Below the pieces are notes generated by a model. The model was given only the letters and a program-made list of their open reading frames with translations, was not told the DNA's origin and searched no databases. A stretch of 64,000 nt of DNA from Candidatus Binatia bacterium. Its GTDB lineage: Bacteria; Desulfobacterota; Binatia; Bin18. The DNA lies in NCBI GenBank assembly GCA_963664395.2, contig OY761159.2:3936001-4000000 (forward strand). The letters run 5' to 3'. Shown here piece after piece: positions 11,970 to 22,488 of the stretch (position 1 is the stretch's first letter; each line of letters opens with the position of its first letter). The position numbers and the translations under genes were made by a program.

Positions 11970-12407
11970 ATGGCCGCTGTCACGCAAACTCAGCCCCGCT
12001 ATCCGTCTCGCCCGACACGTCCGATTATGGTGACCGTTGCCGCGTGTCTGGTGGCTGCCTATGCGGCCGTGTTTATTGTCTGGGATATTATTGCTCCGTT
12101 TGAGCGGCCCTATGCTGAAGGCCCTGTCAGTGTCATTTTGGGCTTTCGCGTGTTCGGCCTGTCTGCCCAACTCATGCACGCCTTGCAACTCATGGTCGCG
12201 GGCAGCCTGGCGTATCGTCTCTGGAAGATGCAGCGCTTTGGTTGGCATTTGGTCGTGTTTAGTGTTGGTTATATGCTGGTCTCATACATGATATGGGCAC
12301 AGGTCTATAACGAGTCTGAGCACATCGTTGGCTTTGGTCTGTTCTATGCTGTGATACTCCTTATTCTGCTGGCTCTTACCTTTCCGCACCGAAGAAAGTT
12401 TATGTGA
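11970..12407 (+). CDS. Hypothetical 4-TM membrane protein
   Basis: Four hydrophobic segments; co-oriented between the crotonase and fabI. Confidence 0.7.
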   Translation: MAAVTQTQPRYPSRPTRPIMVTVAACLVAAYAAVFIVWDIIAPFERPYAEGPVSVILGFRVFGLSAQLMHALQLMVAGSLAYRLWKMQRFGWHLVVFSVGYMLVSYMIWAQVYNESEHIVGFGLFYAVILLILLALTFPHRRKFM

Positions 12408-13326: not shown

Positions 13327-14490
13327 ATGCAAACAGTTGAACCCCAAGCAGTTGGTATGGACCCGGCCCGTGTCGAGCGTTTCTTTTCAGTGGTGGAACG
13401 TAAAATCGAGGCAGGCTGGTTGTTTGGCGGCGCGTTTCTCCTAGCCCGGCGCGGAAAGATTGCTGCCGCGCGAGCGCTTGGCCACGCCCAACCGCGGGAG
13501 GGTCGGACGGCTAAAACAGATGACATCTTCTGCCTCTTTTCAACCACCAAGCCCATTACGGCTACGATGTTACTCATGAAGGTTGACCAGGGTGAGGTCC
13601 AACTGTTTGATAAGGTCGCGGATTATATCCCGGAGTTTGCTGCTGCCGGCAAGCGGAGTGTTACCGTCTCTCAAGTGATGACTCACACGGCCGGATTCCC
13701 AACAATGGCACTGGACTGGCCTATGTCAAAGTGGGGAGATTGGGAGGCGACGATCGCGCGCATCTGTGCGCAGCCACTGGAGTTTGAACCGGGAACAGCC
13801 GTCCACTACCACGCGCTTACGGGATCGTGGATTTTAGCTGAGATCGCCCGTCGGGTAGATGGCGGCAAGCGAAGCTTTGCCCAAATGTGTGAAGCAGACC
13901 TGTATGGCCCTTTAGGTATGAACGACTCCTACATGGGAGTCCGGCCCGACATGCAAGAACGCCGTGTTCCAGTCCAGGCGTTGGATGCGGGTGGTGTGCC
14001 GTTTCCCATGTCATTTCTGGAAGCGTTTAACGCTCCTGAAGTGCAGGCCGCTGCTATTCCAGGTGGTGGCTCGTATTCCACTATTCATGATCTGGCCCGC
14101 TTCTACCAAATGTGGCTCAACGGAGGCGAGCTTGACGGTGTCCGTTTACTCAGCCCAGCCCTGGTTGATGTGGCGACCACGATTCATACCGGCGCTATGG
14201 AAGACCGACTGCTCGAACCCATTCGGGTGGCAAAACAGTGGCCGTTTGCCCCGGCGAATCGAGGCCTGGGGTATTGGGTCCGCGGCAGCGGTATCTTCCC
14301 CACATATTTTGGCTCGCTCGCCTCGCCACGGACGTATGGACATGCCGGAGCAAGTAGCATCATGGCCTGGGCTGACCCGGTTCGGGCACTGACTTTCGTG
14401 GGTCTGACAAGCGGTCTTATTGAGGAGCCGCGGAGCATTGAGCGCTGGGCGTTGTTTTCCGATTTGGCTCAGGCGTGTGTTGTTGACTAA
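13327..14490 (+). CDS. Serine hydrolase, beta-lactamase fold (family VIII esterase / EstB-like)
   Basis: SxxK (STTK), MTHTAG, PGTAVHYH and YGHAG motifs; no signal peptide. Confidence 0.88.
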   Translation: MQTVEPQAVGMDPARVERFFSVVERKIEAGWLFGGAFLLARRGKIAAARALGHAQPREGRTAKTDDIFCLFSTTKPITATMLLMKVDQGEVQLFDKVADYIPEFAAAGKRSVTVSQVMTHTAGFPTMALDWPMSKWGDWEATIARICAQPLEFEPGTAVHYHALTGSWILAEIARRVDGGKRSFAQMCEADLYGPLGMNDSYMGVRPDMQERRVPVQALDAGGVPFPMSFLEAFNAPEVQAAAIPGGGSYSTIHDLARFYQMWLNGGELDGVRLLSPALVDVATTIHTGAMEDRLLEPIRVAKQWPFAPANRGLGYWVRGSGIFPTYFGSLASPRTYGHAGASSIMAWADPVRALTFVGLTSGLIEEPRSIERWALFSDLAQACVVD

Positions 14491-14523
14491 CTGGAGTATT
14501 GGCTTGCCGGAGTACGGAGCCCT

Positions 14524-15219
14524 ATGAAACCAAAGCTGACCTCAGCCGCTATTCTGACAATTATCCTGCTTATCGGTGTCCTAGCGGCTGGGAATTACGC
14601 CGTCTTGCACAACGGACCCCTTGGCCAAGTCATTGTGAGCTGGCTTAAGAGTATGGTTGGAGCAGGCTGCTCTGCTTCGCTGGTGTACTTTATTGGAGCG
14701 CCCGTCATTGTTGGACTGCTACTCCTGCTTATTGTTCCGCGCTGTGTGGCACTTGAAGAGGACGCGCAAGAGCCGGCTGAAGAGCGGCCGCTGGCACCAA
14801 AGCAGCCGTACAAACCACCCGTACCGACAAAGCCCTCTGCGGATGCCGCTGTCCAGCTTTTGGCGCTCCTGCAGCGCGAAGGGCGGCTGGTTGATTTCCT
14901 GCGTGAAGATATCGGGGCGTATGACGATACGCAGGTTGGCGCTGCAGTACGGACCATTCATGAGGCGTGTCGAAAAGTTTTGACTGAGCACCTCAACATT
15001 GAGCCGGTCTTAGACGGAAGCGAAGGGGATACGGTCACCGTTCCTGAAGACTTTGATCCCTCTGCTGTTCGCCTGACCGGACATGTCAGTAGCGAAGCAC
15101 CCTTTCGAGGGGAGCTGCGCCATGCCGGATGGAAGGCCACCTCTGTGACACTGCCCGAACAGCCAAAGGGCCAGGATCCCCAGGTCATTGTGCCAGCAGA
15201 AGTGGAAATCCCAGAGTAG
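14524..15219 (+). CDS. DUF2760 domain protein with N-terminal TM segments (GrpE-like)
   Basis: LLALLQREGRLVDFLREDI, FDP, LRHAGW and PAEVE motifs; upstream of an Hsp70 pair. Confidence 0.85.
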   Translation: MKPKLTSAAILTIILLIGVLAAGNYAVLHNGPLGQVIVSWLKSMVGAGCSASLVYFIGAPVIVGLLLLLIVPRCVALEEDAQEPAEERPLAPKQPYKPPVPTKPSADAAVQLLALLQREGRLVDFLREDIGAYDDTQVGAAVRTIHEACRKVLTEHLNIEPVLDGSEGDTVTVPEDFDPSAVRLTGHVSSEAPFRGELRHAGWKATSVTLPEQPKGQDPQVIVPAEVEIPE

Positions 15220-15265
15220 GCATTCAGCCTTTCGGGGTACTATCAGCAAGGTCGGAGAGCCAAAT

Positions 15266-15293
15266 GTCGGGGCGGTTCGCGAGCCGTCCTGAC
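15266..15293. repeat. Degenerate REP-like palindrome
   Basis: GTCGGGGCGGTTCGCGAGCCGTCCTGAC forms an imperfect hairpin in the intergenic space. Confidence 0.45.
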
Positions 15294-15325
15294 GAACAAT
15301 TGTGTCATTGTTATAGGCGAGTATT

Positions 15326-17140
15326 ATGACAACACCCTCACGTTACATCGTTGGTATTGACCTGGGTACGACAAATAGTGTGGTGGCCTATGTCGATACG
15401 CAGGACGAAGAACTACCCATACGGATTCTGCGCATTCCTCAGCTTACGACCCCCGGCAATGTTGAGGAACGGACGACGCTTCCCTCCTTTCTCTACATTC
15501 CGACGAAACAGGAATTCCCCGAGGGAAGCTTGGCTTTGCCGTGGACGGATGAGTTGAGCTTTGCTGTCGGGACGCTTGCTCGAACGCGTGGAGCTGAAGT
15601 CCCGGGACGCCTCATTTCGTCTGCCAAGTCGTGGCTGTGCCATACCGGCATGGATCGCACTACCCCCATCTTGCCCTGGGATGGCGGCGATGAAGTCCAA
15701 AAAATGTCGCCGCTCGAGGTTGCCGCCCAGTACCTTGCCCACATCCGCCAGGCATGGAATGCACAGATGGTACGCGCTGACTCGGAAAACAGTCTGGAAC
15801 AGCAGGATGTTTTCCTGACGGTCCCAGCCTCTTTTGATGCGGTTGCACGCGAGCTGACGGTTCAGGCTGCTGAGCACGCTGGCTTCGTGAATGTGACTTT
15901 ACTCGAAGAACCCCAAGCTGCCTGTTACTCCTGGATTGACCAATCCGGCGACGCCTGGAGAAGGCAGGTGCGCGTAGGCGACATCATACTGGCCTGCGAC
16001 ATTGGCGGGGGGACCACGGATTTCAGCCTTATTGCAGTAGCTGAACAGGACGGAGAGCTGGAACTCGAGCGTGTTGCTGTCGGAGATCATATTCTGCTGG
16101 GCGGCGATAACATGGACCTGGCCCTTGCGTATGCCGTCCAGCAACGCCTGGCGCAAAAAGGGACCAGACTTGATGCGTGGCAGCTGCGTGGGCTGTCGCA
16201 GAACTGTCGAGCGGCCAAAGAGAGTTTGCTCCAGCTCGATCACGAGCAGAACTATCCCCTGACGATTCTTGGACGAGGAAAAAGTGTGATTGGGGGGGCG
16301 CTACGGACCGAACTTTCGTACGACGAGGTTGAGAAGGTATTGGTCGATGGGTTCTTTCCTTACTGCACTGCGGACGAACGCCCCCAGACGAGCCGTCGCG
16401 TTGGATTTCAGGAAATAGGGCTCCCCTATGCGGCTGATGCTGGTGTGACGAGACATCTTGCGAAATTTCTGGCTCAGCACGTATCAATCGACGCGGAAAC
16501 GGGAACCTTTCTGCACCCTACGGCCTTGCTGCTTAACGGAGGGACGCTGAAAGCTGCATTGCTACAGGACCGCTTGGTGAGAGTGGTCAATACCTGGCTT
16601 GAAAAGGACGGTGGAGAACCGCTCCGGGTCCTTGAAGGGATTGACCTTGACCATGCCGTTGCACGTGGAGCGGCTGCGTATGGGCGCGCCCGACGTGGGC
16701 ACGGTGTGCGTATCCGCGGGGGAACCGCTCGTTCCTATTACATTGGTATCGAGAGTTCCATGCCGGCTGTTCCTGGCATGCCGGCTCCACTCAAAGCCTT
16801 GTGTACGGTCCCGTTTGGTATGGAGGAAGGAACTGAGTGTGATATCTCCGGCCAAGAGTTCGGGCTGATTGTCGGCGAGCCGGCCGAATTTCGATTTTTT
16901 GGCTCAACGACGCGACGAGAAGACCGCCTCGGTGACCTGATTGAAGCGCCGGATGAGGAGGTCGAAGCTCTTTCTCCTTTGGAAACGACACTGTCATGGG
17001 CGGGGCGAGAAGGGACCCTGGTCCCAGTTCGGTTGCGCGCACATGTAACCGCAGTTGGGACGATAGAGCTCTGGGCTGTAGCGACAGACGAAAATCAGCG
17101 TTGGAAGTTGGAGTTCAACGTACGAACAACGGAAGGGTAG
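15326..17140 (+). CDS. Hsp70/DnaK-related protein (non-canonical)
   Basis: GIDLGTTNS, TVPASFD, EEPQAA, DIGGGTTD and LLGGDNMD motifs. Confidence 0.92.
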   Translation: MTTPSRYIVGIDLGTTNSVVAYVDTQDEELPIRILRIPQLTTPGNVEERTTLPSFLYIPTKQEFPEGSLALPWTDELSFAVGTLARTRGAEVPGRLISSAKSWLCHTGMDRTTPILPWDGGDEVQKMSPLEVAAQYLAHIRQAWNAQMVRADSENSLEQQDVFLTVPASFDAVARELTVQAAEHAGFVNVTLLEEPQAACYSWIDQSGDAWRRQVRVGDIILACDIGGGTTDFSLIAVAEQDGELELERVAVGDHILLGGDNMDLALAYAVQQRLAQKGTRLDAWQLRGLSQNCRAAKESLLQLDHEQNYPLTILGRGKSVIGGALRTELSYDEVEKVLVDGFFPYCTADERPQTSRRVGFQEIGLPYAADAGVTRHLAKFLAQHVSIDAETGTFLHPTALLLNGGTLKAALLQDRLVRVVNTWLEKDGGEPLRVLEGIDLDHAVARGAAAYGRARRGHGVRIRGGTARSYYIGIESSMPAVPGMPAPLKALCTVPFGMEEGTECDISGQEFGLIVGEPAEFRFFGSTTRREDRLGDLIEAPDEEVEALSPLETTLSWAGREGTLVPVRLRAHVTAVGTIELWAVATDENQRWKLEFNVRTTEG

Positions 17141-17199
17141 CGGGCCGCCCGCCGGCTGGCCTGTGCCCTCAATTCTCTGTTTCACGAGATACTAGAATA

Positions 17200-20085
17200 A
17201 TGACGACTGCTGAGGCGGCGCAGCCGCGCTACATTGTTGGCATTGACCTGGGCACGACAAACTGTGCGGTCGCGTATATTGATACCGCCCGCTCGGCCGA
17301 GATCCTGCCCTTTTCCCTTCTGCAATTAATCAACGAAGCAACGGTTGCTGCTCAACCAACGCTTCCGTCGTTTCTGTATTTACCCGGCCCGCGCGATCTG
17401 CCGGAGGGCAGTCTGAGCGTACCGTGGGACCGTGAGCCGACGTTTGTTGTGGGGCAGTTTGCCCGGGTCCAAGGCGCGCGCATACCCGGCCGTCTCGTCT
17501 CTTCAGCCAAGTCGTGGATGTGCCATGCCGGTGTGGACAGACAGGCCGCTATTTTACCCTGGGATGGACTGTCTGAAGTAAAAAAAATATCACCGGTTGA
17601 GGCGGCCGCTCGCTATCTGCTGCATCTTCGTCAAGCGTGGCGGCACGCAATGGGCAAAGCCTATCCGCTGGAAGAACAACAGATCATCCTGACCGTTCCC
17701 GCCTCCTTTGATGAAGTCGCCCGCGAACTGAGCGTAGAAGCGGCCGGGCGCGCCGGGCTCTCTCAACTGACGCTCTTAGAAGAGCCCCAAGCGGCCTTAT
17801 ACGCCTGGGTAGGCGCGCATACGGACTCATGGCAGACGCAACTCAAGGCAGGTGACGTTATTTTGGTGTGTGACGTTGGTGGGGGGACGACTGATCTCAG
17901 TCTGATGACGGTCACACAAGGCAAGAATCAGCTCGGCTTGGAACGGATCGCTGTCGGCGAGCATCTGTTGCTTGGGGGCGATAATATGGACGTGGCGCTG
18001 GCACGTCTGATCGAAGGTCGTCTCAACGCGGGCAAACGGCTGGACTCCCAACGCTGGCATCTATTGTGTCAGTTGTGTCGGACGGCCAAAGAAGATCTGT
18101 TTGCAGATGCGTTGGAAGAAACGGTGCGGCTGACCTTGCCCGGTCGAGGCAGCTCGGTTGTGGGCGGTACGCTGAGTGACGGCCTGACCCGAGCAGACAT
18201 TGAACAGATCGTCCTTGGCGGGTTTTTCCCCAGCGTCGAAGCTGAGGCGACACCCCGGCGAGGCGGACGGGCCGGACTCCAGGAGTTCGGGCTTCCATAT
18301 GAAACAGAACCGGAGATATTACGCCACATCGCATTTTTTCTGAGACAGCATGCCGACGAGGTGGCACAGACGTCCCTGGGGTTAGCACGTCCTGATGCCA
18401 TCTTGTTTAACGGTGGAGCGCTGACTCCGCTGGCCATACGCGAGCGGATTGCACAGACGGTTGCGGCCTGGTTCCAAAGCGAAGAATCTCACGGCCAAGA
18501 CGATTGGCAGCTCTCCGTCCTTTCCCATTCCAATCTCGATTTAGCCGTCGCCCATGGAGCGGCCTATTACGGCTTGGTGCGGCGCGGCCACGGGGTCCGA
18601 ATTGGCGGAGGGAGTGCCCGTTCGTACTATGTTGGCGTTGGCGGAACGCCCCGGAATTGGCAGGCCAAACAGGCTGACGCTTCAGTATCTGCTGTCTGCC
18701 TCGTACGCAGAGGCATGGAGGAAGGCGAGGAGATTCATCTGACGGAACAGGAGTTCGAGGTCCTGGCCAATCAGCCGGTGAGTTTCCCCCTGTATGCCTC
18801 CAGTACTCGAAGCGGTGACCAACCAGGAGAACTGCTCAGGCTGGACTCGGACGAGCTTGCGTTCTTACCTCCAATCAAAACAGTCCTGCGATTTGGCAAA
18901 AAAACCGGGGTCACCAAAATTCCAGTACAAGTCTCCGCTCGTTTTACTGAAGTCGGGACGCTCGAACTGTGGTGCGAAGCGCGTCAGACTGGCCACCGTT
19001 GGCGCTTGCAGTTTCAGTTGCGCGGAGAAGGGCAGAGTGTAGCGCCGGCGTCCCAAGCGATAGTGAGTGAAGAACAGGTCCTTGATGAAACTCGTTTGAC
19101 GAATGCAACGACTCTTTTGCGGCGTGTGTTTGTGACAGGAAAAACAGAGGGAGAGGACAGTGGCCCCCAGACCCTTCCCCGGCAGCTTGAAGAAATTCTT
19201 GGAACAACGAGAGACAGTTGGCCGCTGAGTGCTATTCGCGCCTTGTGGGATGTCTTGTGGGACGTTCAAAAAGGACGGGCGAAGGGGCCTGAGTATGAAG
19301 CCCGGTGGCTGAATCTTATTGGCTTTCTGTTGCGTCCGGGTTTTGGCCATCCAACGGATGAATGGCGCATGCAACAAGTCTGGAAACTCTACGGTTGGGG
19401 AATCACGCATGCCAAGGCTACGCAATGTCGGGCTGAATGGTGGAATATGTGGAAGCGAGTAGTGGGTGGCTTGAGCCGACAGCAGCAGACGGTACTCCAG
19501 CACGAGATTGCACCTCGCATTCTGCCTATTTCGTCTAAGGCAAAAAATCAGAAGCAATCCGGTAGCCGGAAAGCCGGTCCGCAGGAAGTACGCGAGATGT
19601 GGCAGGTGGCGGCAAGCTGTGAGAGGCTTGATGCCGAAGCTAAAAATAGTATGGGTGAGGCTCTGGTCCGACTTATCGAAAAAGGGAAGGCGTCAGAGCA
19701 GGAAATCTGGGCGCTGTCTCGTCTCGGAGCGCGGTCGCTCATGTACGGCCCGGCCAACTGTGTGGTCCGTAAAGAAAAAGCGGCCCGGTGGGTCCAGCGT
19801 CTGCTTGAAAAAACCTGGCGTCAGCCCGAGGCGACCGCGTTCGCGCTGACGCAAATCGCCCGCTGTACGGGCGACCGCACGCGCGATCTTGATGACGCAT
19901 TGCGTGAACGAGTTGCCGAGCGACTCGCATCCTTTTCGTTCGGCCAGCGGTGGGCTAAGCAGGTCCGAGAGGTCGTTCGGCTTGAGGCCAGGGAGCAGGC
20001 GCGTATTTTGGACGAGACGCTGCCGGCCGGCTTGCAGATCAAGAACATTGAAGACGAGGAGGGCGATACGCGCAGGCTGTCTTGA
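17200..20085 (+). CDS. Hsp70/DnaK-related protein with C-terminal DUF3731-like extension
   Basis: Same NBD motifs as its neighbour, plus a Trp-rich helical C-terminal region. The ATG at 17200 aligns with the paralog N-terminus. Confidence 0.9.
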   Translation: MTTAEAAQPRYIVGIDLGTTNCAVAYIDTARSAEILPFSLLQLINEATVAAQPTLPSFLYLPGPRDLPEGSLSVPWDREPTFVVGQFARVQGARIPGRLVSSAKSWMCHAGVDRQAAILPWDGLSEVKKISPVEAAARYLLHLRQAWRHAMGKAYPLEEQQIILTVPASFDEVARELSVEAAGRAGLSQLTLLEEPQAALYAWVGAHTDSWQTQLKAGDVILVCDVGGGTTDLSLMTVTQGKNQLGLERIAVGEHLLLGGDNMDVALARLIEGRLNAGKRLDSQRWHLLCQLCRTAKEDLFADALEETVRLTLPGRGSSVVGGTLSDGLTRADIEQIVLGGFFPSVEAEATPRRGGRAGLQEFGLPYETEPEILRHIAFFLRQHADEVAQTSLGLARPDAILFNGGALTPLAIRERIAQTVAAWFQSEESHGQDDWQLSVLSHSNLDLAVAHGAAYYGLVRRGHGVRIGGGSARSYYVGVGGTPRNWQAKQADASVSAVCLVRRGMEEGEEIHLTEQEFEVLANQPVSFPLYASSTRSGDQPGELLRLDSDELAFLPPIKTVLRFGKKTGVTKIPVQVSARFTEVGTLELWCEARQTGHRWRLQFQLRGEGQSVAPASQAIVSEEQVLDETRLTNATTLLRRVFVTGKTEGEDSGPQTLPRQLEEILGTTRDSWPLSAIRALWDVLWDVQKGRAKGPEYEARWLNLIGFLLRPGFGHPTDEWRMQQVWKLYGWGITHAKATQCRAEWWNMWKRVVGGLSRQQQTVLQHEIAPRILPISSKAKNQKQSGSRKAGPQEVREMWQVAASCERLDAEAKNSMGEALVRLIEKGKASEQEIWALSRLGARSLMYGPANCVVRKEKAARWVQRLLEKTWRQPEATAFALTQIARCTGDRTRDLDDALRERVAERLASFSFGQRWAKQVREVVRLEAREQARILDETLPAGLQIKNIEDEEGDTRRLS

Positions 20086-20142
20086 GTAAAAGAGCTTGAT
20101 ATTCAGCCGGAATTTCTACCGGTCGAGTCCTGGGAGCCGCGC

Positions 20143-22488
20143 TTACTCTGCCTGTTTCACCGCTCCTGCTTGCATCAACTGATCAATCCGGTCCGGATCG
20201 TATCCAACAACTTCTCGGAGGACTTCTCGTGTATGCTGGCCCAACATCGGCGCAACGCGAGGAATACTCGTAGGGGTCCGGGAGAATTTGGCAAAGAGAC
20301 CTGTTTGTCGCACTTCTCCCCACTCCGGATGGGTATGGGTCGCGATCAAGTCGTTTGCTGCGATGTGTTCATCCTCAAAGAGTTCTGCGATTGATAACAC
20401 CGGGGCGCAGGGGACCCCGGCTCGGTCGAGTTGAGCGATCCAGTCCGCGGTTGGCTGTTTTGCAAAGATGGTGGCGAGAGATTGCGCCAGTGGCCCTTCG
20501 ACCTCGCCTGCGCGTGCTGTGTTGAACGAAAAATCTCGGAATAGGGACGGGTAGCCTACTGCCTGACCAAGTTTCTGCCAGTGGGCAGCTTCCATCACGG
20601 CCAGGAAGAACGAGGAATCAGCGCTCGGATAAATGCGATACAAGGGGCTCTTCCCCCATAGATCAGCTCCACCGTTTTCACAGTCCGGTCGGTTGGGATA
20701 GAAAATAAAATCACCGGATTGGACGGCCATGGCGGCATTGGCCAAAGAGGTCTCAACATGTTGTCCCTTGCCCGTTCGAGTCCGCGCGTACAGCGCCGCA
20801 CTCACACCATAGGCGGTTAAGGTCGCCGCGGCGTAATCGCATATCCCACAGGTCAAATAGAATGGTGGCTGGCCATGGCCGCCTTGCGCACGCATCACGC
20901 CGGAGCGTGACTGGAGGAGGGGGTCAAATCCCGGCTGATTGTAATCCGGGCCGTCCGCTCCAAAGCCGGTGACAGAGGCCTGAATAATGCTCGGATTGAT
21001 GCTGCTCAAGGTCTCGTAATCAAGGCCATAGCGCTTTGTTGCGCCGGGCCGCAAATTCTCGACCACAACGTCAGCGTTGCGTACCAGGTCATAGACGACC
21101 TCTTGTCCTGCGGGCGTATTCAGATTGACTGCTATCCCGCGCTTCCCTTGGTTCCAACCCAAAAAGCCAAAACCAAAAGTACGGAACGCATCACCAGAGA
21201 AAGTCTCAACCTTAATGACATCCGCGCCAAGCTGGGCCAGGACCATCGGTCCTAAGGTTCCGGCGATATAGCTGGAGAAGTCAAGCACGCGAACACCGGC
21301 AAGCGGTGGGGAAGAGAAGGTTGTTTTCCTGGATGCTGAGACAGCTCTGGGAACATGCCGGGGCTCTGATTGCCACAAGCCGGCTTGCAGTTCGTCCGTA
21401 TGTTGCCCTAACACCGGCGCGGGACGAGTGATGGAACCTGGCGTATCAGACATCCGTATAGGCACACCCATTTGGATGGTCGGTCCGAGTTCCGGGTCTT
21501 CCACTTCCACTCGCATGCCGTTGTGAATGACTTGTGGGTGCGCAATGAATTCTTGACGACTCATGACCGGTGCTGAAGGAACATCATGCTCACGCAGAAT
21601 GCCCACCCACTCTTCGCGTGACTTGGTCTCCATAATGGCGGAGATGGTATCTGCAAGTTCTTGGCAGTCTTCTGGCCGGATGCCCCAGGGTGCTTTTTCA
21701 TAGCGCGGGTCTGCGGTCCATTCCGGATGTTCCAGCGCCAGGCAGAATTTATTCCAAAAGGTGGCATTCCCACAGGCGACAAACAGCCAGTCGTCAGAGG
21801 CTTTATACAGGCGGTAGACAGGAATAGGCCCGAGCGGGTCTTGACGACTGCTAAACAAGCGCAACATATCAGGGTGGTAGAGTGTCGCCCCAGTTTGCAT
21901 CGCAAACACGCCGGCTAACCACGAGACTTCGAGGTGCTGGCCTTGCTGGCTCTTCTGGCGCTCAAGCAACGCGGCGCAGATAGCGCTCGAAGCGATAAAC
22001 GCCGCTCCATAACTGGCAATGGGTACTACGAGATACACGCCGCCAGCACGATGCGACCACTGACTGCCGTGGAGTCCGCCGCATGCTGCAACCAGGGCAT
22101 CGTCCGCATACCGCTCGGCATGTGGCCCCGTAGTCCCAAAGGCCGGCATGTGGCAGTAGATGAGACCTGGATTTTCCTCGCGGAGTGCAGCATACGCAAG
22201 ACCGCGGGCTGTTTCTGTCCCAGGCTTGTGATCGGTAATGAGGATGTCAGATTCTGCGACAAGCTGCCGAAGCGACTGCCGGCCGGATTGAGAAGAAAGA
22301 TCGGCCACAATGCTCCGTTTACTCCGATTCCAAATATGAAATCCGGGCGTGCCGCGCATGGAGTCGCCCTGTGGGTGTTCGACCTTGATGGCCTCAGCCC
22401 CTTGCTCGGCAAGGAGCATGCCCGTGTACGGGGCTGCTATGCCTTGGGCACATTCAAGGATGCGTATGCCTGCGAGTGCTCCTGCCAT
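20143..22488 (-). CDS. Tandem two-domain family III CoA-transferase (CaiB/BaiF)
   Basis: Two copies of LAG(I/V)R(I/V)L...LAxxGA(E/D)xIKVE...N(R/Q)xKR. Confidence 0.92.
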   Translation of the reverse strand: MAGALAGIRILECAQGIAAPYTGMLLAEQGAEAIKVEHPQGDSMRGTPGFHIWNRSKRSIVADLSSQSGRQSLRQLVAESDILITDHKPGTETARGLAYAALREENPGLIYCHMPAFGTTGPHAERYADDALVAACGGLHGSQWSHRAGGVYLVVPIASYGAAFIASSAICAALLERQKSQQGQHLEVSWLAGVFAMQTGATLYHPDMLRLFSSRQDPLGPIPVYRLYKASDDWLFVACGNATFWNKFCLALEHPEWTADPRYEKAPWGIRPEDCQELADTISAIMETKSREEWVGILREHDVPSAPVMSRQEFIAHPQVIHNGMRVEVEDPELGPTIQMGVPIRMSDTPGSITRPAPVLGQHTDELQAGLWQSEPRHVPRAVSASRKTTFSSPPLAGVRVLDFSSYIAGTLGPMVLAQLGADVIKVETFSGDAFRTFGFGFLGWNQGKRGIAVNLNTPAGQEVVYDLVRNADVVVENLRPGATKRYGLDYETLSSINPSIIQASVTGFGADGPDYNQPGFDPLLQSRSGVMRAQGGHGQPPFYLTCGICDYAAATLTAYGVSAALYARTRTGKGQHVETSLANAAMAVQSGDFIFYPNRPDCENGGADLWGKSPLYRIYPSADSSFFLAVMEAAHWQKLGQAVGYPSLFRDFSFNTARAGEVEGPLAQSLATIFAKQPTADWIAQLDRAGVPCAPVLSIAELFEDEHIAANDLIATHTHPEWGEVRQTGLFAKFSRTPTSIPRVAPMLGQHTREVLREVVGYDPDRIDQLMQAGAVKQAE

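Follow-up and report, generated by a model that had tools for sequence, protein, structure and literature searches.

The cassette and its genes

We analysed a stretch of 64,000 nucleotides (nt) from the chromosome of a Candidatus Binatia bacterium (contig OY761159.2, positions 3,936,001 to 4,000,000), referred to below as the window, in which a gene for a protein of the DUF2760 family is followed by genes for two Hsp70-like ATPases. Three open reading frames (ORFs), all on the forward strand, make up this group. The first encodes the DUF2760 protein, the second an Hsp70-like protein of 604 amino acids (aa), here termed the short ATPase, and the third, which extends from 16996 to 20085, an Hsp70-like protein with a DUF3731 tail, termed the long ATPase. 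Translation of the long gene is likely to begin at the ATG at 17200 rather than at the start of the ORF, and with this start the N-terminus matches those of 38 relatives in an alignment. Gaps of 106 nt and 59 nt separate DUF2760 from the short gene and the short gene from the long one. An initial annotation of this DNA had described three co-oriented genes, and the ORF calls together with Pfam matches to PF10816, PF00012 (twice) and PF12531 confirm the arrangement. The families are adjacent, co-oriented and in the order expected of the DUF2760 / Hsp70 / Hsp70-DUF3731 cassette, which is catalogued in Pfam and functionally unstudied; the window holds a genuine chromosomal copy of it. Positions of the individual features are collected in Table 1.

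Table 1. Positions of the DUF2760 cassette features in the window
Feature	Position	Strand	Size or residues	Basis
DUF2760 gene	14524..15219	+	231 aa	PF10816, E 1.8e-50
Predicted membrane anchor, N-terminal hydrophobic helical hairpin	14542..14748	+	residues 7-75	AlphaFold2 and Kyte-Doolittle
Pro-rich low-confidence linker	14749..14838	+	residues 76-105	AlphaFold2 model, proline count
Conserved DUF2760 C-terminal alpha/beta domain	14839..15216	+	residues 106-231	conservation and domain-only model
Spacer with GC-rich hairpin, between DUF2760 and short Hsp70 gene	15220..15325	+	106 nt	
Short Hsp70-like ATPase	15326..17140	+	604 aa	PF00012, 67.4 bits
Long Hsp70-like ATPase with DUF3731 tail	17200..20085	+	961 aa	PF00012, 66.5 bits; PF12531, 280.7 bits
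DUF3731 domain of long Hsp70	19288..20040	+	residues 698-948, counted from 17197	PF12531, E 1.8e-83

DUF2760 genes are tied to Hsp70 paralogues

A search with the DUF2760 profile retrieved 80 loci, and the labels of their records name more than 10 phyla. Eleven of these, with less than 2 kb of downstream sequence, were set aside. An Hsp70-like gene lies directly downstream of DUF2760 in 56 of the 69 usable loci, which divide into 39 full triads, 7 loci where only the long gene follows or the genes are fragmented, 6 truncated at the end of the contig and 4 that lack DUF3731 within 7 kb. The 39 triads bear out the earlier statement that the DUF2760-Hsp70-Hsp70/DUF3731 neighbourhood recurs.

We also compared the occurrence of the families across 61 sampled genomes of the phylum. 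Seven of these carry both PF10816 and PF12531, the other 54 carry neither, and GrpE is present in all 61. Among the 13 loci in which DUF2760 is not linked to an Hsp70 gene, five were examined at the level of the genome, and in all five PF12531 was detected elsewhere. Adjacency, shared presence and the unlinked genomes all connect DUF2760 with these Hsp70 paralogues, and on the co-occurrence data DUF2760 is therefore treated as a private partner of the ATPases.

The unlinked loci (L039, L041, L049, L053, L054, L065, L072, L079, L082, L086, L092, L097 and L100) have no common neighbour. In two of the five genomes examined the DUF3731 match is split or contains stop codons.

Two lid-less members of the Hsp70 superfamily

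Both ATPases score well above the PF00012 cut-off of 20.6 bits (Table 1), and in both the match is confined to the core of the nucleotide-binding domain (NBD), corresponding to residues 125-310 of the short protein. The short ATPase consists of an NBD (residues ~1-455), a linker with the sequence RRGHGVRIRGG and a C-terminal domain of ~140 aa, with no lid; its best matches in the PDB are structures of the DnaK NBD. The long ATPase likewise has no helical lid and runs on into DUF3731, where the match covers positions 2-248 of the 248 in the PF12531 profile, against a cut-off of 25 bits. In a three-way alignment with the DnaK of the same genome, the equivalents of DnaK D8, K70, E171, D193 and T198 are identical in both ATPases, and these catalytic equivalents are invariant across 51 short and 39 long homologues. 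The nearest NCBIfam models are those of HscA and DnaK, which both proteins match with 57-93 bits against cut-offs of 620-1019; the best scores, 83.2 and 93.3 bits, are to HscA models with cut-offs of at least 620. On these sequence comparisons both ATPases belong to the Hsp70 superfamily without being orthologues of DnaK or HscA. The genome also has a canonical DnaK, whose gene adjoins GrpE at another site, and one further Hsp70.

The presence of two ATPases allows a reading in which nucleotide exchange or regulation arises within the pair and DUF2760 is an anchor only. The long protein might act on the short one in the manner of Hsp110, or the putatively helical DUF3731 tail might act in the manner of HspBP1 or Sil1. 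Two paralogous Hsp70-type genes do stand side by side in 39 of the 69 loci, and according to PMC4753570 Hsp110 is both a paralogue of Hsp70 and an exchange factor, and HspBP1 and Sil1 are exchange factors with armadillo repeats. Against such regulation, a profile of 38 DUF3731 tails found no relative among PDB sequences and thus no HspBP1, Sil1 or Fes1 (best E 0.22, to an unrelated enzyme), and three genomes have two-gene forms with the long paralogue alone (see below). We regard regulation within the pair as unlikely, and weigh it about equally with an exchange-factor activity of DUF2760.

A predicted membrane hairpin, a linker and a conserved domain

The PF10816 match of the DUF2760 protein (170.4 bits against a cut-off of 25) spans residues 106-228 and positions 2-124 of the 124 in the profile. 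Homologues are numerous, with 1411 of near-equal length and 1892 cluster representatives at E<=0.001. Two hydrophobic segments precede the domain (Kyte-Doolittle scale, 19-residue span, threshold >=1.6), and the AlphaFold2 model places helices at residues 7-30, 32-45 and 51-75. The following residues, 76-105, have no secondary structure in the model, with a predicted local distance difference test score (pLDDT) of 62-80; the length of this linker varies over the family, and 9 of the 40 residues ahead of the domain are prolines. The two N-terminal hydrophobic helices and the proline-rich linker of the initial annotation were thus recovered, and the C-terminal string that it had quoted is present in the translation. 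Such a hairpin would leave both ends of the protein in the cytoplasm.

Across 150 DUF2760 sequences, 32-53% identical overall, the residues Q117, R121, D124, R143, G186, G196, H200, G202 and W203 are invariant. We also noted that H146, C149 and H200 (window positions 14959-15123) are nearly or fully invariant in these members, as are R143, E167 and D178; a metal or redox site formed by such residues is conceivable. When modelled alone the C-terminal domain reaches a pLDDT of 94.9 and a predicted template modelling score of 0.79, and its model shows a helical hairpin and then four short strands; the C-terminal segment, which is also ordered in the model, ends in PAEVE. No clear structural relative of this domain emerged from structure comparisons, a PDB sequence search with the single DUF2760 sequence gave no match at E<=10, and a search of the ESM Atlas with the domain, PF10816 being left out, gave no usable match. 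The modelled domain appears to have no recognisable fold.

A resemblance to FlaA was considered and rejected. It involved three chains, matched by the DUF2760 profile in the PDB at E 0.13-0.15 over 30 residues, and was judged to be due to chance. Among fused forms, taken as proteins longer than 405 aa, we found a single protein of 453 aa with PF10816 only; this amounts to no informative fusion and is weak as a negative.

The resemblance to GrpE is at the level of chance

GrpE is a helper of Hsp70, and the initial annotation had held that the C-terminal half of DUF2760 follows the order of the GrpE hallmarks and that the protein is GrpE-like. As a reference for GrpE we used an alignment of 30 sequences from genomes of the window's phylum. 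In a greedy profile alignment the motifs of the two families are co-linear (DFL/DNL, FDP/FDP, G.L/GY and PAEVE/PAxVxV), so that the order as such was reproduced. Profile-profile comparison with hhalign gave a probability of 0.15%, with the last 14 columns only aligned, and when restricted to the domains it gave a local score of 13.9 (P 0.17, probability 0.4%), the reversed GrpE profile scoring 9.5. Since 36 of 120 column-shuffled GrpE profiles (mean 12.8, standard deviation 2.7) reached the real score, the GrpE-like order of motifs is what chance would be expected to produce.

Searches with hidden Markov models (HMMs) gave a similar picture. The GrpE HMM performed no better on 269 DUF2760 proteins than on the same proteins reversed, with best scores of 5.9 against 3.7 bits and mean scores of -2.2 and -2.3. 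The DUF2760 HMM likewise scored the 30 GrpE sequences no better than reversed ones (2.8 against 3.8), while an HMM of the GrpE family recovered the true GrpE of the genome at E 1.7e-51. The GrpE family PF01025 is absent from the Pfam hits of the DUF2760 protein at E<=0.01, and does not appear in the list of the 25 commonest families when 150 DUF2760 members are scanned with Pfam at E<=10. According to PMC4753570, GrpE has a long N-terminal coiled-coil stalk and dimerises. No long stalk of this type is present in DUF2760, the N-terminal half of which is predicted to consist of the hydrophobic helical hairpin and the unstructured linker.

Taken together, the profile-profile scores, the shuffled profiles and the reversed-sequence controls do not support homology of DUF2760 to GrpE at the level of sequence. 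Because the resemblance equals chance, the equation of DUF2760 with GrpE should stay out of annotation. It has also to be considered that the C-terminal domain is a GrpE-like exchange factor, as a very diverged homologue or a convergent analogue, which would open the nucleotide cleft of one or both Hsp70 paralogues while tethering them to the membrane. We consider such a function improbable.

The short ATPase has been lost in sister genomes

In three genomes (L031, L032 and L040) DUF2760 is followed directly by the long ATPase gene, and no second paralogue was found in these genomes at E<=1e-20. Two of them, L031 and L032, are the closest relatives of the window, with a long ATPase that is 85% identical. 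In both, the single ATPase starts out as the short gene does (MT..SRYIVGIDLGTTN) and matches the long one over the remainder. The spacer that precedes this gene is in both genomes homologous to the one that separates DUF2760 from the short gene in the window, and in L031 the flanking genes are the same. This pattern of sequence matches fits a deletion of the short gene by recombination between the conserved 5' coding stretches of the two paralogues. Sister lineages can do without the short Hsp70, so the minimal unit would consist of DUF2760 and one such ATPase. The stretches compared here are L031:7679-10644, L032:7664-10629 and 15220-20085 of the window.

Some RNA-library contigs, derived from a near-identical strain, lack 22 nt at 15803 (seen in one run) and 11 nt at 16944 (seen in two). 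These deletions fall inside the short Hsp70 gene and would each shift the frame; they could mean that the short gene is decaying in that population, or be errors of assembly at a depth of 3-8.

The spacer after DUF2760 contains a GC-rich hairpin, GUCGGGGCGGUUCGCGAGCCGUCCUGAC, at 15265-15293, which is kept in L031 and L032. The spacer as a whole is kept in three close relatives, without covariation. As a candidate structured RNA it was rejected, with an unremarkable fold z-score of -1.64 and compensatory change in none of 16 pairs. Promoter and terminator scans over 14300-20300 gave counts in line with those expected from shuffled sequence.

Genomic surroundings and transcripts

The cassette is flanked by genes for an enoyl-CoA hydratase, an enoyl-ACP reductase, a beta-lactamase-family hydrolase, a family III CoA-transferase, a dihydroorotate dehydrogenase and RNase III. 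We considered these genes as possible parts of the system and rejected them, their synteny extending to at most three of the closest relatives (L031, L032 and L033); beyond these, L047 and L092 each gave one weaker match. Two of the surrounding genes are of some note in themselves. A 781-aa protein encoded at 20143-22488 on the reverse strand carries two CoA-transferase family III stretches and is apparently a tandem fusion, and a hydrophobic protein of 145 aa at 11970-12407 on the forward strand matches no Pfam family and occupies the same position in L031, L032 and L033.

A role in defence, one of those suggested in the initial annotation, would make the cassette an anti-phage or other conflict system with DUF2760 as membrane effector and the Hsp70-like ATPases as sensors. 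The patchy distribution, seven of 61 genomes of the phylum, would be in keeping with such a role, as would weak PADLOC matches of both ATPases to the candidate system PDC-M61B (21.3 and 18.8 bits, E 2.3e-5 and 1.3e-4). These matches, however, span only ~100 residues of the shared ATPase fold, and DUF2760 has no PADLOC match. The flanking genes are moreover metabolic or housekeeping in character and syntenic in the sister genomes, and the composition of the window is flat, with no island signal. The proposed role is not upheld by these data, and we consider it very improbable.

Parts of all three genes are represented in metatranscriptome contigs that come from four runs of one study and share 95-99% identity with the window. 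Both gene junctions are bridged, including the spacer after DUF2760, and one contig enters from the upstream gene, which is compatible with co-transcription of the three genes. Parts of the long gene are left uncovered by the RNA-library contigs, which are not informative on expression there. As such libraries can contain DNA, the contigs constitute weak evidence of expression.

Comparison with characterised Hsp70 systems

The copy in the window shares with the catalogued cassette its families, their order, the catalytic residues and the usual N-terminal anchor. Nothing essential differs, and it is in sister genomes of the lineage that the short ATPase has been lost. Our literature search found no paper that names DUF2760/PF10816 or DUF3731/PF12531, although supplementary tables, which lay outside the search, might name the genes.

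The cassette resembles the DnaK-DnaJ-GrpE system in having an actin-fold Hsp70 ATPase with the same catalytic residues, encoded together with a small partner protein. It differs in that the ATPases are ~27-29% identical to the DnaK of their own genome, carry RRGHGVRIRGG where DnaK has its hydrophobic interdomain linker, and lack the helical lid. The partner has no detectable relationship to GrpE, the cassette contains no gene for a J-protein, and the genome retains a separate DnaK-GrpE pair. A parallel may also be drawn with HscA and HscC, specialised Hsp70s of Escherichia coli that are independent of GrpE (PMC4753570). Like these, the cassette ATPases are specialised paralogues that exist beside DnaK, and their best NCBIfam matches are HscA models; their scores, however, lie far below the HscA cut-off (83 and 93 bits against 620), and their C-terminal domains and partner protein differ.

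Experimental data may exist for relatives of the cassette. In Myxococcus xanthus, MXAN_5323 is a 925-aa 'cd10170' Hsp70 whose deletion lowers sporulation and oxidative resistance and which does not rescue an E. coli dnaK mutant, according to Pan et al. (2021, PMC8265645); the paper mentions neither DUF2760 nor an operon. This protein is probably a counterpart of the long paralogue, as judged by its length and NBD-only annotation. One of our loci, L098, is a myxobacterial triad with a long gene of 929 aa. In Vibrio cholerae, VC1373-VC1375 are listed as one operon in a screen for biofilm-repressed genes, VC1374 being described as a 'DnaK-related protein' (PMC9201469), and both in vivo and in vitro HapR binds the VC1375 promoter and activates it (PMC10328515). 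This operon is a candidate member of the cassette family.

Discussion

From the results presented above, DUF2760 is probably a membrane-tethering, dedicated partner of lid-less Hsp70 ATPases. The protein would be held in the inner membrane via its two-helix hairpin, and the flexible proline-rich linker would present the alpha/beta domain on the cytoplasmic side. This domain may then dock one or both of the ATPases at the membrane, so that DUF2760 would act as an anchor or a specificity factor for them.

A complex prediction for the short ATPase (604 aa, 51 alignment rows) with the C-terminal domain (132 aa, 150 rows), made without controls, gave ipSAE values of 0.15 and 0.16 against a mark of 0.32, which speaks neither for nor against binding. 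Several observations weigh against the reading of DUF2760 as a membrane-tethering partner. In 13 of the 69 usable loci, mostly from Planctomycetota, there is no Hsp70 gene within 7 kb. The co-occurrence in seven of 61 genomes overstates the independence of the cases, because there is kinship among the sampled genomes, and one genus supplies two of the seven positives. Hydrophobic segments vary among 150 representatives of the family: at least one is present in 113 (two in 79, one in 31 and three in 3), while the other 37 lack them altogether. Some of these 37 may be truncated gene calls, but as they stand they imply that membrane tethering is not universal in the family. Finally, one GrpE-type chain appeared in the structure comparison at rank 43 of 48,161, at the level of noise, and together with the co-linear greedy alignment it leaves room for a very remote relationship to GrpE. 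Of the earlier proposal that DUF2760 tethers an Hsp70 pair to the membrane, the genomic tie and the predicted two-helix anchor of the window's protein speak in favour, whereas the lack of an anchor in those 37 representatives limits how far it can be generalised.

Beyond the role of membrane-tethering partner favoured here, it is conceivable, if rather doubtful, that the DUF2760 C-terminal domain represents a new kind of co-factor for bacterial Hsp70s, with a sequence, and perhaps also a fold, that has no relationship to GrpE. It would regulate the nucleotide cycle of the lid-less ATPases, by exchange or by control of ATPase activity, while holding them at the inner membrane.

The main contribution of this analysis is a negative one, in that the likeness to GrpE, which was the new element of the initial annotation, fails the tests applied to it. 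With the short ATPase cleanly lost from sister genomes, the minimal functional unit can be narrowed to DUF2760 and one ATPase. In the biology of bacterial Hsp70s the cassette is among the larger branches yet to be explored, and if DUF2760 did prove to be a new co-factor, the cassette would be an Hsp70 machine close to the membrane that depends on neither J-proteins nor GrpE and is distributed across many phyla.

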